This document shows positions 1,080 to 5,917 of a stretch of DNA of 64,000 bases, in pieces; position 1 is the stretch's first letter, and each line of letters begins with the position of its first letter. Both the position numbers and the translations under genes were made by a program. Below the pieces are notes generated by a model. It had not been told where the DNA came from and did no database searches. It worked only from the letters and a program-made list of their open reading frames with translations. Source of the stretch: Escherichia phage vB_EcoM-VpaE1. Where the stretch lies: the sequence record KM657822, one strand, 5' to 3'.

Positions 1080-1156
1080 CTCTGTTTAGCTCAGCTTGGT
1101 AGAGCGTTCCGTTTGGGGCGGTAAGGCCGGAGGTTCAAGTCCTCCAACAGAGACCA
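1080..1156 (+). tRNA. tRNA-Pro (TGG)
   Basis: 7 bp acceptor stem CTCTGTT/AACAGAG, T-arm GGAGGTTCAAGTCCTCC, anticodon loop tttgggg, encoded CCA. Confidence 0.7.
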
Positions 1157-1163
1157 AATTAAT

Positions 1164-1241
1164 GTTCCAGTAGACAAAATGGTATAGTCACCACTCTTTC
1201 AAAGTGGATATTTGAGGGTTCAAATCCCTTCTGGAACGCCA
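1164..1241 (+). tRNA. tRNA-Glu (TTC)
   Basis: Acceptor GTTCCAG/CTGGAAC, anticodon stem CCACT/AGTGG with loop ctttcaa, T-loop TTCAAAT, discriminator G, CCA. Confidence 0.65.
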
Positions 1242-1247
1242 GTTTTG

Positions 1248-1322
1248 ACAGAAGACCAATTACAGCAAACTTAATCTTATTCATCTGAAGGTAAATCGGA
1301 CAAAGAAGAGATTTGGTCTGGT
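1248..1322 (+). repeat. inter-tRNA hairpin element copy 1 (ACAGAAGACC-AA...TT-GGTCTGG)
   Basis: Conserved 5' box ACAGAAGACCNNTTACAGCAAA and 3' box NNGGTCTGG; 7 bp stem AGACCAA/TTGGTCT. Confidence 0.5.
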
Positions 1323-1332
1323 CATTAAGAAT

Positions 1333-1409
1333 TGCGGGTATAGAGAAAGGGCGTCTCACATGTCTCATTAGCATGGTATCGGCAGGTTCGACTCCTGCAC
1401 CCGCCTCCA
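1333..1409 (+). tRNA. tRNA-Met (CAT), unpaired 1-72 position
   Basis: Anticodon stem CATGT/GCATG, loop ctcatta; T-arm GCAGGTTCGACTCCTGC; U1-C72 mismatch. Confidence 0.6.
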
Positions 1410-1414
1410 AATTT

Positions 1415-1482
1415 ACAGAAGACCGTTTACAGCAAAATTAAATGAAATTTTTAGCGGAAAAAATTGAAAGATACGGTCTGGT
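1415..1482 (+). repeat. inter-tRNA hairpin element copy 2 (stem AGACCGT/ACGGTCT)
   Basis: Same boxes as copy 1 with compensatory change AA/TT to GT/AC in the stem. Confidence 0.5.
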
Positions 1483-1494
1483 AATACTAAACAT

Positions 1495-1571
1495 GGTTAG
1501 GAAGCACATAAGGTATGTGCGGTCGCCTGTTAAGCGAATGGCACAGGGTTCGAATCCCTGACTAACCGCCA
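1495..1571 (+). tRNA. tRNA-Asn (GTT)
   Basis: Anticodon loop ctgttaa, T-arm CAGGGTTCGAATCCCTG, acceptor GGTTAGG/ACTAACC, CCA. Confidence 0.65.
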
Positions 1572-1580
1572 AATTTAAAT

Positions 1581-1668
1581 GTGTCGTTATCCCGTAGATG
1601 GTAGCGGTGGGGACTGTAAATCCCTTGTCATTGAGACTCGGTAGGTTCGACTCCTACACGGCACACCA
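1581..1668 (+). tRNA. tRNA-Tyr (GTA), long variable arm
   Basis: Anticodon loop ctgtaaa, long variable arm, T-arm GTAGGTTCGACTCCTAC, acceptor GTGTCGT/ACGGCAC, CCA. Confidence 0.65.
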
Positions 1669-1673
1669 ATAAA

Positions 1674-1751
1674 GGTTATGTAGTTTAATCTGGTTAAAAT
1701 ACTCCCCTGTCACGGGAGATGATGAGGGTTCGAATCCCTTCGTAACCGCCA
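1674..1751 (+). tRNA. tRNA-Asp (GTC)
   Basis: Anticodon stem CTCCC/GGGAG with loop ctgtcac, T-loop TTCGAAT, CCA. Confidence 0.65.
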
Positions 1752-1811
1752 ATTTTGAGAGGGCTATTTAGCCCCTCCCTTAAAGGGTTCTTACGAGTAT
1801 TCTTTAAAGGA

Positions 1812-1887
1812 GCAGAAGACCAAATTCAGCAAGTTACTTAAAATTTCAAGCCAATTCAATTTTGAAAAAATTTAAAACTTGGTCTGG
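1812..1887 (+). repeat. inter-tRNA hairpin element copy 3 (stem AGACCAA/TTGGTCT)
   Basis: GCAGAAGACCAAATTCAGCAAG ... TTGGTCTGG; preceded by AAGGGTTCTTACGAG motif also found at 4808. Confidence 0.45.
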
Positions 1888-1899
1888 CTCAACAAATTT

Positions 1900-2031
1900 A
1901 CAGAAGACCGTTTACAGCAAAACTTAAACAATCTATTTCTCGGTAAAGAAAAGGAGAAGGTTCGATTCCTTCACTCGGCAGATGTCGAGTTGGTGTAATG
2001 GTAGCACTTAAGATGATAAACAACGGTCTGG
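1900..2031 (+). repeat. inter-tRNA hairpin element copy 4 enclosing a tRNA fragment
   Basis: ACAGAAGACCGTTTACAGCAAAA ... ACGGTCTGG; interior holds an isolated T-arm GAAGGTTCGATTCCTTC plus acceptor-like pieces. Confidence 0.45.
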
Positions 2032-3902: not shown

Positions 3903-3980
3903 GTTCCAGTATCCCAATTGGCAGAGGATGCAAGCTCAAACCTTGTACTAGTGACGGTTCGAATCCGTCTTGGAACACCA
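3903..3980 (+). tRNA. tRNA-Leu (CAA), short variable arm
   Basis: Anticodon stem GCAAG/CTTGT with loop ctcaaac, T-arm GACGGTTCGAATCCGTC, discriminator A, CCA. Confidence 0.5.
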
Positions 3981-3999
3981 ATTTTGAGAGGCTATTTAG

Positions 4000-4557
4000 A
4001 TGAGATATTTGAAGTATGCTTCATGGATTTTCCTAGCTTTACTAGAACCATTTGCAGCAACCCTAGCAGTCATCTTAGCACCTTTCGTAGTTCCATTCTA
4101 CAGTGAGAAGAAAGGACATCTACCTTTTGGATTCAGATGGATGGAGACCTATGACAACCCAATTGATGGTGATGAAGGCCACGTTAAAAGATGGGCTAAG
4201 ATTAGAAAGATTGGTAAGCTGGGTGTCTACATGCAGAGAGTTGGATGGCTCTGGAGAAACAAAGCTTATAACTTCTCTTACCATGTATTAGGAAGAGATG
4301 TAAAAGATGTTACTAAGTGGAAAGGTAATATCAACGTAAGTTCTAACCCTGAAGATAATCAGACTGGTTATCTCCTAATGTGGAACAGTAATGCTTGGGG
4401 ATTATTCGCTTTTATCCCATCAATTAAAGTCTTTGGTAAACAGTTTTACTGGAGAATTTATGTTGGGTGGAAACTTAAAAGTGTTGTCCCAGAAGAAAGA
4501 GCATTCTCAAGGGAAAGAGTTATGTTGGCATTCTTTATTCATCCACTGAGAAAGTAA
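4000..4557 (+). CDS. hypothetical membrane protein embedded in tRNA cluster
   Basis: 185 aa ORF with SD-like GAGAGG upstream; hydrophobic N-terminus (WIFLALLEPFAATLAVILAPFVVPF); Trp-rich. Confidence 0.45.
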   Translation: MRYLKYASWIFLALLEPFAATLAVILAPFVVPFYSEKKGHLPFGFRWMETYDNPIDGDEGHVKRWAKIRKIGKLGVYMQRVGWLWRNKAYNFSYHVLGRDVKDVTKWKGNINVSSNPEDNQTGYLLMWNSNAWGLFAFIPSIKVFGKQFYWRIYVGWKLKSVVPEERAFSRERVMLAFFIHPLRK

Positions 4558-4565
4558 AGATTTAA

Positions 4566-4641
4566 AGGGGATTAGTTTACAAGGTTAAAACCTCGGTCTT
4601 TGAAATCGAAGAAGTTGGTTCAATTCCAACATCCCCCGCCA
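4566..4641 (+). tRNA. tRNA-Gln (TTG)
   Basis: D-stem GTTT/AAAC, anticodon loop ctttgaa, T-arm GTTGGTTCAATTCCAAC, discriminator G, CCA. Confidence 0.6.
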
Positions 4642-4643
4642 AT

Positions 4644-4722
4644 GCTCCATTACTCCAATTGGCAGAGAGGCCAGACTTAAAATCTGTGTTATGTATCGGT
4701 TCGAATCCGATATGGAGTACCA
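4644..4722 (+). tRNA. tRNA-Leu (TAA), short variable arm
   Basis: Anticodon loop cttaaaa, T-arm ATCGGTTCGAATCCGAT, discriminator A, CCA; D-stem covaries with the 3903 tRNA. Confidence 0.5.
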
Positions 4723-4727
4723 AATTT

Positions 4728-4803
4728 AGCGGTATAGCATAACTGGCAATGCAACAGTCTCTGAAGCTGTCCTATTAAGGTTCAAATCCTTATGCCGCTG
4801 CCA
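4728..4803 (+). tRNA. tRNA-Gln (CTG)
   Basis: Anticodon stem ACAGT/GCTGT with loop ctctgaa, T-arm TAAGGTTCAAATCCTTA, discriminator G, CCA. Confidence 0.6.
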
Positions 4804-4834
4804 CTTCTAAGGGTTCTTACGAGAGTCCTTAAAT

Positions 4835-4910
4835 GTGGCCTTATCATAAATGGTAATGACCCATGCTGTGAACATGGTCTATACGGGTTCAAATCCCGTA
4901 GGTCACCCCA
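4835..4910 (+). tRNA. tRNA-His (GTG)
   Basis: Anticodon stem CCATG/CATGG with loop ctgtgaa, T-arm ACGGGTTCAAATCCCGT, CCA. Confidence 0.65.
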
Positions 4911-4916
4911 ATTTAT

Positions 4917-4992
4917 AGTCCAAGTAGCTTATATGGTTAAAGCGCGTGTCTGAAAAACATGAGAAGAGGGTTCAAATCCCACTGGACTACCA
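4917..4992 (+). tRNA. tRNA-Phe (GAA)
   Basis: D-stem GCTT/AAGC, anticodon stem CGTGT/ACATG with loop ctgaaaa, T-loop TTCAAAT, CCA. Confidence 0.6.
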
Positions 4993-5008
4993 ATTTCAAA
5001 GGTGCTTA

Positions 5009-5743
5009 ATGAAAGAGATGACAGAACAAGGTAAGGAGATTTTTAATCTCTTAAAAACCGGTAAAGGGTTTTCTAACCCACTTATTACTGGTGCAGCAGT
5101 TCTCGGTGGAACCGTAGCTGCCTCTACATCACTTGTAAGCTCTATTAGCTCTGTAACAGACCCTGCAATGAAGGAGAAACTTGTTGCTGCTGGACTTACA
5201 ACAGTCCTTCTAAACAGCTTTACAACAAGCCTTACAAGCACTACAGCAACTACTAAGACCCTAACAGACTACGGTCAAAAGTCTATTGATGAGTTTTCAT
5301 CACGTATGCAGGTAGCAAAGGGATATTCCAATGTTATGGGTGCAGCAGGAGAACAGGTTGGTTGTACACCATTCAGTGGTATTATGGGTGTTGCTACAGA
5401 ATATGGTCAAAAAGCTATTGACACAATTAACAGTACACTAGATAGTGTTAATGGTGTGTTAAGTGACTTACAAGATGCTATTGATAAGGGTCTTGATACT
5501 GTTTCTGATTTAGCTAACCAAGCTGTTAGTAAGATTAATGAAGGTATCTCAAAGATTACAGCTTATGCAGATGAAGTTGTGCAGATGATTGAAGAAGAAG
5601 CTGCCCTTATTGCAGAGTACCTTAAAACGAATATCAATGGGTTCTTAGCAGGTATCTTACCAGACTGGTTTGACGATGCTTGTAAAACTGGTGTGATTGA
5701 CACTATTGCAACACCAGAAATGAAGAACGCATTACAGAAATAA
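5009..5743 (+). CDS. hypothetical Ser/Thr-rich protein embedded in tRNA cluster
   Basis: 244 aa from ATG 5009; track ORF start 4946 would overlap tRNA-Phe; stop sits 2 nt before tRNA-Ser. Confidence 0.5.
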   Translation: MKEMTEQGKEIFNLLKTGKGFSNPLITGAAVLGGTVAASTSLVSSISSVTDPAMKEKLVAAGLTTVLLNSFTTSLTSTTATTKTLTDYGQKSIDEFSSRMQVAKGYSNVMGAAGEQVGCTPFSGIMGVATEYGQKAIDTINSTLDSVNGVLSDLQDAIDKGLDTVSDLANQAVSKINEGISKITAYADEVVQMIEEEAALIAEYLKTNINGFLAGILPDWFDDACKTGVIDTIATPEMKNALQK

Positions 5744-5744
5744 T

Positions 5745-5838
5745 GGAAGATTAACCCTAAAAGGTAAGGGAGCAGTTTGCTAAACTGCTAGTAGCTGAGA
5801 AATCGGTGTACCAGTTCAAGTCTGGTATCTTCCTCCAA
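5745..5838 (+). tRNA. tRNA-Ser (GCT), long variable arm
   Basis: Anticodon stem GCAGT/ACTGC with loop ttgctaa, long variable arm, T-arm ACCAGTTCAAGTCTGGT, CCA. Confidence 0.65.
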
Positions 5839-5841
5839 TTT

Positions 5842-5917
5842 GAATCCGTGACAGAAATGGATATGTGCCTGTCTGCAAAACAGGTTTATAAGGGTTCAAG
5901 TCCCTTCGGATTCTCCA
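5842..5917 (+). tRNA. tRNA-Cys (GCA)
   Basis: Perfect acceptor GAATCCG/CGGATTC, anticodon stem CCTGT/ACAGG with loop ctgcaaa, T-arm AAGGGTTCAAGTCCCTT, CCA. Confidence 0.65.

Follow-up and report, generated by a model that had tools for sequence, protein, structure and literature searches.

A probable RNA-gene island of Felixounavirus with transfer RNA genes, a Ro60-like gene, Y-RNA-like modules and a predicted tmRNA-related RNA bearing a segment antisense to host tmRNA

Clusters of transfer RNA (tRNA) genes are annotated in GenBank for the Felixounavirus/Ounavirinae phages Felix O1, Mushroom, finno and Sf14, and the cluster of Sf14, a related phage with the same gene order, was analysed before and comprises 26 tRNAs for 19 amino acids (PMC12482277). 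Two other kinds of small structured RNA have to be considered beside them. YrlA Y RNAs, whose tRNA-like parts follow the order V, T, acceptor stem, D, are encoded beside Ro60 genes both of bacteria and of 22 phages (PMC4201824), and mycobacteriophage DS6A carries a tag-less transfer-messenger RNA (tmRNA) consisting of the tRNA-like domain only, the sole such phage form in the tmRNA database paper (PMC11915505). The present study concerns the cluster at positions 1080–5917 of a 64,000-nucleotide (nt) stretch of Escherichia phage vB_EcoM-VpaE1 (record KM657822), which is referred to below as the window; all features lie on its + strand unless stated otherwise. As described by an initial annotation, the tRNA cluster is already known and ordinary for Felix O1-like phages, having the same genes in the same order at ~97% identity. 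Between these genes, a predicted RNA of the opposite kind to that of DS6A was found, which has the body of a tmRNA with its tag template and a 5' arm antisense to host tmRNA, together with a set of Y-RNA-like modules behind a Ro60-like gene. In the finno and Mushroom records, the inter-tRNA spaces are blank or filled by hypothetical-protein open reading frames (ORFs) laid over tRNA sequence, and the tmRNA-related RNA, the Y-like modules and a candidate tRNA-Trp discussed below are unannotated.

Over its full length, the region 800–6300 is 96–97.5% identical in nucleotide sequence to many Felixounavirus genomes (JK55, Mushroom, finno, skuden, REP5-12), the values being ~97% for Shigella phage JK55, Salmonella phage Mushroom and Escherichia phage finno and 96.2–96.4% for the REP5-12 felixounaviruses. 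The tRNA order in the annotated relatives finno and Mushroom is identical to that of the window, and in annotated relatives the cluster is preceded by a 'vWFA/RNA-binding protein' gene and followed by the large terminase gene. Its G+C content is ~40%, and it is not a pure tRNA cluster, since two protein ORFs and several RNA elements other than tRNAs also lie within it. We assign a probability of roughly 0.8 to the reading of this region as an RNA-gene island of Felixounavirus (Felix O1-like myoviruses of enterobacteria), in which tRNAs are combined with a Ro60/Y-like part and a tmRNA-related RNA.

The tmRNA-related RNA came to light when ARAGORN with relaxed settings and Rfam flagged a tmRNA-like tag at 2508–2543, the sequence upstream of which aligns to the tmRNA resume region. 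The predicted RNA is ~200 nt long (2465–2663) and lies behind the promoter-like site at 2430. It opens with the 5' arm (2465–2494), antisense to nt 76–107 of host tmRNA, and continues with the tag frame (2508–2543), GCA AAC GAC AAT GTT TTT CTG GCA GTA GCT TGA TAG, which is directly preceded by AUAAAU and encodes ANDNVFLAVA followed by two stop codons. A helix-5-like stem (2526–2555) encloses these stop codons, with CTGG at 2526–2529 paired to CCAG at 2552–2555 and an inner TAGC/GCTA helix; next comes an H-type pseudoknot (2556–2588), whose stem S1 joins 2556–2560 to 2571–2575 and whose stem S2 joins 2565–2568 to 2585–2588. A hairpin with the conserved loop RUGAUUAAUAA (2596–2622) and a long terminal hairpin (2623–2659) complete the element, the latter ending 4 nt before tRNA-Arg, at which RNase P cleavage would generate the 3' end. 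The resemblance to one- and two-piece tmRNAs thus extends over the A-rich leader with U(-5)A(-4), the GCA resume codon, the 10-codon AND...A tag, and the stop codon placed in the loop of a helix-5-like stem and followed by an H-type pseudoknot; a second in-frame stop is present in some variants, this window included.

Three of these helices covary among the 104 distinct copies that were compared. The outer pairing of the helix-5-like stem is CTGG:CCAG in 79 of them and CTGA:TCAG in the other 25, and pseudoknot stem S2 occurs as CCGA:TCGG (50 copies), CCAA:TTGG (35) or CCAG:CTGG (18), with one mismatch. Beneath the invariant loop RUGAUUAAUAA, 17 different stems were counted, all of them fully paired. 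P1-type copies keep the same architecture with other sequences, their pseudoknot being formed by ACGGGG:CCCCGU and GUCG:CGAC. The tag is constrained in the manner of a coding sequence: it always has 10 codons, at least 14 peptide variants exist, positions 1, 2, 7 and 10 show synonymous changes only, and position 6 is restricted to V, F, Y or M, while the resume codon is still preceded by U(-5)A(-4). Codons 4–6 of the host tag are retained in none of the 46 tag variants, and these are exactly the codons with which the arm's invariant UAGUUUUCG would pair. A small ORF overlying the tag in the +2 frame (MQT...WQ, then stop) was considered and rejected, since Kuttervirus copies lose its AUG and frame 0 changes synonymously.

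The arm is the reverse complement of host tmRNA. In most types it matches nt 67–106 of Escherichia coli ssrA, a target that takes in the 3' strand of pseudoknot 1 (PK1) and runs through the A-rich leader and the resume codon into the tag, as far as its codon 6; the Felix-type target, nt 76–107, likewise comprises the A-rich leader, the resume codon and the first six tag codons. This target is identical among the sampled Enterobacterales tmRNAs. In every one of the 104 copies, the computed pairing of the arm with ssrA was far better than its alternatives, the mean free energy (dG) being -32.0, against -17.5 for pairing with the element's own tag region and -15.8 for shuffled arms (mean z-score -5.2). 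For the arm of the window, dG was -27.3 (z -4.6), none of 500 shuffles being as good, and no other site in ssrA equalled it. Invariance is highest in those stretches of the arm that are left without a partner in cis (UUUUCG and UUUGCGG), and promoters abut the arm. In an independent second scan that used the arm alone as its anchor, a 10-codon tag lay 51–57 nt downstream in 97 of 101 distinct sequences, and the remaining four were chance matches in GC-rich coding DNA. Full-length cofolding of lambdoid copies with tmRNA, by a method that ignores pseudoknots, yielded a net gain (ddG) of -13 to -14.5, compared with -3 to -8 for the controls.

The core of the element (2499–2623) is present in 594 phage records, distributed over Felixounavirus, Jedunavirus, N4-like Schitoviridae (Ithacavirus, Pollockvirus) and Ackermannviridae, and it is never annotated as an RNA gene there: mostly no feature is given, and in a few records a hypothetical-protein coding sequence overlies it. 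Apart from occasional tRNA-to-tRNA similarity, the 93 viral carrier contigs outside the Felix group share nothing else with the window. The element also occurs in 691 of 5,426 complete E. coli genomes, most copies being located on P1-like plasmids next to tRNA-Asn and tRNA-Thr and the rest in lambdoid prophages between the Q antiterminator and holin genes; the N4-like phage copies carry a terminator of their own. The carrier loci sampled were the window itself and the loci numbered L003–L120, L122, L123 and L245–L304, among which the variant of L026 returned partial matches only in a megablast search against sequenced phage isolates. The element is a conserved, structured and independently mobile RNA gene, with an arm matched to host tmRNA and a tag template under coding-type constraint.

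Several further small structures accompany it in its carriers. On lambdoid prophages and P1-like plasmids (L123, 2430–2770; L008, minus strand, ~4120–4400; L122, 1380–1900), the element and neighbouring small modules are flanked by the complementary motifs AGTGCTCTTTCC and GGTAAGAGCATT, which may form processing stems. One of the modules flanked by AGTGCTCTTTCC / GGTAAGAGCATT is CCCTTATGGGGCTTGGCTTAAATGCA, present also in some felixounaviruses, and another is a hairpin plus a T-arm unit. In Kuttervirus Maynard (L006, ~1650–1735), a tRNA-like element that was not called by the programs lies ~150 nt after the tmRNA-related RNA, within a 2-kb stretch without an annotated gene; it shows ATGGGAG, a GAAA-capped hairpin, a T arm GAAGGTTCGAGTCCTTC, and CTCCAATCCCA.

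In spite of its tmRNA-like body, the element is not a tmRNA, as it does not have the defining tRNA-like domain. The acceptor stem with G3.U70, the T arm and the 3' CCA end are absent, as are PK1, PK3 and PK4; no tmRNA was detected by ARAGORN in either the window or L003–L006, and at many carrier loci there is neither a T-loop motif nor a tRNA within 700–1500 nt of the element. It differs from tmRNA also in having a 5' segment antisense to host tmRNA, at which transcription appears to start. A permuted, two-piece tmRNA, to which the RF04321 match over 2357–2540 (32.5 bits) and a relaxed ARAGORN call ('tmRNAp') pointed, was rejected: its T arm would be borrowed from tRNA-Ile, and the acceptor strands are unpaired.

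Some observations weigh against our reading of the element. The Rfam tmRNA models RF00023 and RF04321 score 14.3 and 32.5 bits, respectively, below the gathering score of 47. In full-length cofolding that ignores pseudoknots, the copy of the window gained -6.1 kcal/mol, not distinguishable from the mean of -4.6 for arm-shuffled controls, and in its predicted fold the arm is partly paired with the element's own tag start, leaving the first six nucleotides free. Promoter-like sites in the region are also no more frequent than in shuffled sequence (15 found, 15.8 expected), so that the promoter assignments, including the one at 2430, rest on position and conservation rather than on statistics.

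That the element is a functional RNA gene is nevertheless very likely, and pairing with host tmRNA is on balance its probable function. Its likeliest action would be to base-pair with host tmRNA and thereby to block or redirect the tagging step of ribosome rescue. Phage RNAs directed at host non-coding RNAs have precedents in AgvB and AsxR, the prophage-encoded anti-sRNAs of enterohaemorrhagic E. coli, and antisense oligonucleotides against the same tag-coding stretch of ssrA are used in ribosome display and block tmRNA in vitro. The likeness is that of a phage RNA or an oligonucleotide pairing with a host non-coding RNA; the present element differs from these cases in that it targets tmRNA and carries, joined to the antisense segment, a complete tag template of its own as a replacement.

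In the proposed course of events, the ~200-nt RNA would be transcribed from the 2430 promoter, and its 5' arm would dock on host tmRNA across the PK1/resume-codon region, covering the host resume codon and silencing the host tag template. Two sub-models may be distinguished from this point. In the first, the outcome would be plain inhibition of tagging. In the second, the free 5' nucleotides would act as a toehold, and pairing with the host molecule would release the element's own tag start from the arm; the phage template would then stand beside the charged host tRNA-like domain, which would resume on it, so that rescued ribosomes would append a phage tag (e.g., AANDNVFLAVA) instead of AANDENYALAA. 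The second sub-model explains the coding-type conservation of the tag, which the first does not. It requires that the ribosome accept a template held by base-pairing alone; in natural two-piece tmRNAs the template is also held by base-pairing, but through two helices and not one. PK1 of tmRNA can be replaced by a simple helix. Such a template swap, i.e., a chimeric host–phage two-piece tmRNA through which a phage non-coding RNA of a new class would hijack trans-translation, is put forward here only as a tentative proposal, clearly less probable than pairing as such.

An alternative that retains function without pairing is a decoy, in which the element would mimic the mRNA-like part of tmRNA and titrate a tmRNA-binding factor (S1, RNase R, SmpB) or a nuclease. 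The tmRNA-like helix 5, pseudoknot and resume context kept in its body would suit such a role, but neither the conserved antisense arm, with its invariant cis-unpaired UUUUCG and UUUGCGG, nor the synonymous-only changes in the tag would be explained, and we regard it as improbable. It is very improbable that 2465–2663 is a functionless fragment of host ssrA left by recombination, its complementarity being the relic of an inverted duplication, since the missing tRNA-like domain, the sub-threshold Rfam scores and the lack of a clear net pairing gain for the window copy in cofolding, which would fit such a relic, are set against the retention of the element in unrelated phage families, P1-like plasmids and lambdoid prophages, three covarying helices, a tag fixed at 10 codons with four synonymous-only positions, an arm that stays matched to the host while the element's codons 4–6 never do, its own promoter, and its own terminator in N4-like phages.

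Returning to pairing with host tmRNA, its significance, if the element truly pairs with SsrA, would be that at least six unrelated phage lineages, lytic and temperate, manipulate by means of an RNA the main ribosome-rescue and tagging pathway of their host. This would be a new kind of phage–host interaction, and it would account for a conserved unannotated gap that recurs in hundreds of genomes, including that of the model phage P1 and, in lambdoid prophages, the late leader. No description of the element was found in the literature, the tmRNA database papers included; most subscription journals were outside the coverage of this search, so a prior description is possible. The tmRNA-related RNA is accordingly well supported and apparently undescribed, while the Ro60-like gene and Y-like modules would be additions to a known kind; the tRNA cluster itself adds nothing new, and the codon test reported below only refines an old debate.

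The gene directly upstream of the cluster, of which the window contains the 3' part (1–914; 471 amino acids in relatives), belongs to PHROG 850 ('RNA-binding protein') and carries Pfam DUF2828 and DUF7788. A sequence search of the PDB with this protein gave no match, and only a fold search was successful. The AlphaFold (AF2) model of a 98%-identical full-length homologue (P0001) had a predicted local distance difference test score (pLDDT) of 86.6, and its top 11 Foldseek matches in the PDB were all Ro60/Rsr/TROVE proteins, aligned over the full length with E ~1e-7, among them Deinococcus Rsr, Xenopus and human Ro60, and the Ro60 of Thermus phage phiLo. Judged by this modelled fold, the gene is a Ro60 (Rsr) orthologue. 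It differs from described Ro60 proteins in that it falls within DUF2828/DUF7788 and not within the Pfam TROVE family.

Four Y-RNA-like modules, interleaved with the first tRNA genes, follow on the same strand less than 4 kb from this gene (gene end at 914, modules within 1246–2036). They are located at 1246–1325 (module 1), 1413–1487 (module 2), 1810–1892 (module 3) and 1898–2036 (module 4), and they share one closing architecture: a 4-base-pair (bp) outer helix that differs between the modules and stays paired, an AGA bulge on the 5' strand, and the inner helix AGACC/GGUCU. The motif GGTCTGG has five copies in the 64 kb, four of which fall within the modules. Module 4 contains a permuted tRNA-like domain, in the order V hairpin, T arm (1956–1972), closed acceptor-like hairpin (1973–1990) and D arm (1993–2007), and the acceptor-like hairpin exists in three covarying versions among the relatives.

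The arrangement resembles the YrlA/Rsr systems in that a Ro60-fold gene is followed, on the same strand and no more than ~1.1 kb away, by small structured RNAs whose closing terminal helix is bulged, and module 4 reproduces inside its terminal helix the V, T, closed acceptor-like stem and D order of the published description (PMC4201824). It differs in its closing helix, which is AGAAGACC/GGUCUGG and not GNCGAA, and in the interleaving of the modules with real tRNA genes. Two results speak against kinship with YrlA: the Rfam model YrlA (RF02553) gave no match at E<=10 over 1752–2180, and the published 5' GNCGAAN0-1G motif is absent, by eye, from the Y-like modules. The surroundings of a distant DUF2828 homologue in Vibrio phage phi-pp2 have no room for adjoining RNAs and so speak neither for nor against the link. 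Module 4 is thus Y-RNA-like in layout, its membership in the YrlA family being putative, and the modules are presumably the RNA partners of the Ro60-like protein. If this is true, Ro60–Y RNA biology would extend to a common group of coliphages.

The tRNA genes proper were called by ARAGORN, which found 25 of them in 1080–5917, all on the + strand and nearly all with an encoded CCA end. They cover 19 amino acids, Trp being absent. Rfam at the gathering threshold recovered 23 of the 25; the two missed were the CAT tRNA at 1333–1409 and tRNA-Tyr, the latter having only a sub-threshold match, best as tRNA-Sec of the same clan. From the 5' end, the genes are tRNA-Pro(TGG) at 1080–1156, Glu(TTC) at 1164–1241, CAT copy 1 at 1333–1409, Asn(GTT) at 1495–1571, Tyr(GTA) at 1581–1668, Asp(GTC) at 1674–1751, Lys(TTT) at 2181–2256, CAT copy 2 at 2261–2337 and Ile(GAT) at 2340–2414, and, after the tmRNA-related RNA, Arg(TCT) at 2664–2740, Ser(TGA) at 2979–3068, Leu(TAG) at 3325–3402, Lys(CTT) at 3410–3485, Ala(TGC) at 3492–3567, Gly(TCC) at 3574–3648, Thr(TGT) at 3655–3731, Val(TAC) at 3827–3901 and Leu(CAA) at 3903–3980. 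The distal part consists of Gln(TTG) at 4566–4641, Leu(TAA) at 4644–4722, Gln(CTG) at 4728–4803, His(GTG) at 4835–4910, Phe(GAA) at 4917–4992, Ser(GCT) at 5745–5837 and Cys(GCA) at 5842–5917. All anticodons named by the initial annotation (two CAT, Lys TTT and CTT, Gln TTG and CTG, Ser TGA and GCT, and the three Leu isoacceptors TAG, CAA and TAA) were recovered in this way; its count of about 26 agrees with the 25 ARAGORN genes to within one and is reached only when the non-canonical tRNA-Trp(CCA) candidate, uncalled by ARAGORN and Rfam, is added. Relaxed ARAGORN calls of intron-containing tRNAs longer than 1 kb and of a 'tRNA-Pyl(cta)' at ~2869–2940 were treated as spurious.

The isotypes of the two CAT tRNAs (Met, initiator-like or Ile2) are ambiguous, and each assignment is a candidate only. 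Copy 1 has a U1.C72 mismatch and U37 and gave no Rfam tRNA match even at E<=10; it is kept in 22 loci with compensatory changes in the T stem. The hallmarks of an initiator, C1.A72 and an anticodon stem closed by three G-C pairs, are absent from both copies, and the AUA codon is rare in the phage (2.9 per 1000). The isotype scores of the CAT tRNAs were ambiguous in Sf14 as well. As to function, the REP5-12 felixounaviruses are among the few phages that infect Syn61-delta-3, a host without serT and serU (PMC12269064); this host has no tRNA-Ser(UGA/CGA), and therefore at least the tRNA-Ser(UGA) of the cluster appears, on this indirect evidence from host range, to be functional.

Between tRNA-Arg(TCT) and tRNA-Ser(TGA), a conserved tRNA-like sequence present in 22 loci (2883–2965) is a probable non-canonical tRNA-Trp(CCA). 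It has a 7-bp acceptor stem with A1-U72, the discriminator G73 and an encoded CCA (ATGGGAC...GTCCCAT-G-CCA), and a good T arm. The identity elements of E. coli TrpRS are G73 and A1-U72, both of which the candidate carries. Its anticodon stem is closed by C31.A39. The loop is UUCCAAC here but CUCCAAA in the majority of relatives; either version presents the anticodon CCA, flanked by U33 and by a purine (position 37). In one diverged relative, four pairs of the anticodon stem are changed on both sides, and the middle pair of the 3-bp D stem has turned from U-A to A-U, likewise on both sides. Against the candidate stand its abnormal D region, with ~8 extra nt after the acceptor strand and a stem of 3 bp, and the absence of an ARAGORN call even at thresholds of 80–85% and of an Rfam tRNA match at E<=10; the two programs miss it because of that D region. 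If it is real, the set would be complete for all 20 amino acids, which bears on translation independent of host tRNAs.

Other felixounaviruses (L050, 3383–3870) have, in exactly the slot of the Trp candidate, a canonical tRNA-Trp followed by an ORF resembling HNH homing endonucleases, which suggests cassette exchange driven by homing endonucleases. In L050-type genomes, a different tRNA-like sequence also stands in place of tRNA-Arg(TCT).

The presence of so many tRNAs had been ascribed by the initial annotation to compensation for a codon-usage mismatch with the host. Codon usage was compared between 62 ORFs of the window (17,080 codons) and 41 annotated E. coli K-12 genes (14,684 codons); the comparison is based on one 64-kb window and one 50-kb host sample, which limits its weight. 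For each of the ten U34 tRNAs of four- and six-codon families, the A-ending codon read is more frequent in the phage than in the host, with log2 values of +4.1 for AGA, +1.9 for ACA, +1.5 for CCA and TCA, +1.4 for CTA and TTA, +0.9 for GCA and GTA, +0.8 for GGA and +0.6 for CAA. In codons per 1000, this corresponds to 17.5 in the phage versus 1.2 in E. coli for AGA (14-fold), 24.2 versus 5.4 for ACA, 15.9 versus 8.5 for CCA and 18.9 versus 5.2 for TCA. Cognate codons are enriched as a class (Mann–Whitney p = 0.02). For tRNAs of two-codon families there is no such enrichment, and those with G34 (Asn, Asp, His, Tyr, Phe, Cys, Ile, Ser-GCT), together with Lys-UUU, Glu-UUC and Gln-CUG, read codons that the host decodes well.

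Pure compensation, in which the tRNAs would do no more than supply decoders for codons used more by the phage than by the host, hence accords with the ten enriched A-ending codons and the class enrichment, but enriched codons make up only 12 of the 23 cognates, and the set covers codons served by abundant E. coli tRNAs (AAA, GAA, CAG, GAC, AAC, ATC). A set with a tRNA for every one of 19 or 20 amino acids exceeds the needs of compensation; the latter therefore explains the choice of anticodon within families, the part of the original explanation that stands, and not the completeness of the set. In the computational study of Sf14, the late genes were best adapted to the phage tRNA pool alone, which also argues against pure compensation, and its authors preferred the view that, in late expression, the phage set takes the place of host tRNAs that have been destroyed (PMC12482277). 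We consider it unlikely that compensation is the whole explanation, and the full tRNA set fits host-independent translation better.

Slightly less likely than compensation is the evasion of defence, in which the phage tRNAs would replace host tRNAs cut by anticodon nucleases or by retron or PARIS-type effectors, changes in their loops allowing escape from cleavage. Such evasion is established for other phages (PMC10264068, PMC11555353), a near-complete set of tRNAs would fit it, and escape from the tRNA-cleaving retron Eco2 is recorded for the majority of the Felixounavirus species examined; this escape is not, however, ascribed to tRNAs by the authors of that work (PMC12916289), and the Sf14 study argued against nuclease escape for this very set (PMC12482277). 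Under host-independent translation, the better-fitting account, host RNA polymerase would produce polycistronic tRNA transcripts, from which RNase P and 3' processing enzymes would free tRNAs with their CCA ends already encoded. The outcome would be a decoder for each amino acid, with a bias toward A-ending codons suited to the phage genes, which are AT-rich, and a late translation that does not depend on the tRNA pool of the host.

The layout of transcription proposed for the cluster, with tandem promoters upstream and terminators downstream on the + strand, is borne out in its main lines. Promoter-like sites are present at 933–961 (TTGACA-17-TAATAT, within a hairpin at 925–956) and at 2430–2458 (TTGACA-17-TATAGT, sigma-70-type, the best of the region with 11 of 12 matches), close to the two promoters that had been placed at 934 and 2430, and a further one is found at 1024–1053 (TTGACA-18-TAAAGT with a TG upstream of the -10 hexamer), 27 nt before tRNA-Pro. 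The view of the 2430 site as a tRNA promoter does not hold: the predicted start at ~2465 is the first base of the antisense arm, and the first product would be the ~200-nt tmRNA-related RNA. The hexamers of this site are kept in relatives with a variable spacer, and they persist in finno-type genomes despite an 88-nt insertion behind them. Both terminators claimed for the 3' side are plausible intrinsic terminators, each consisting of a hairpin followed by six U: the first (5955–6014) has a long hairpin at 5955–6008 with dG -25.4 (z -5.1), and the second (6080–6103) has a hairpin at 6080–6097 with a GC-rich stem of 6 bp and dG -8.6 (z -3.1).

The two protein ORFs within the cluster encode 185 amino acids (4000–4557; DUF7338/PHROG 2143, a holin or hypothetical protein in relatives) and 244 amino acids (5009–5743; DUF7217/PHROG 2114). 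Further gaps of 140–250 nt between tRNA genes, at 2741–2882 and 3069–3324, contain no ORF of convincing length and are kept only among felixounaviruses; the former folds better than its shuffles (dG -41.3, z -2.8). Outside the cluster, GC skew is negative (-0.16 to -0.20) for ~10 kb at 30001–40000 of the window and then positive again, a pattern compatible with a - strand gene block in an otherwise + strand genome.

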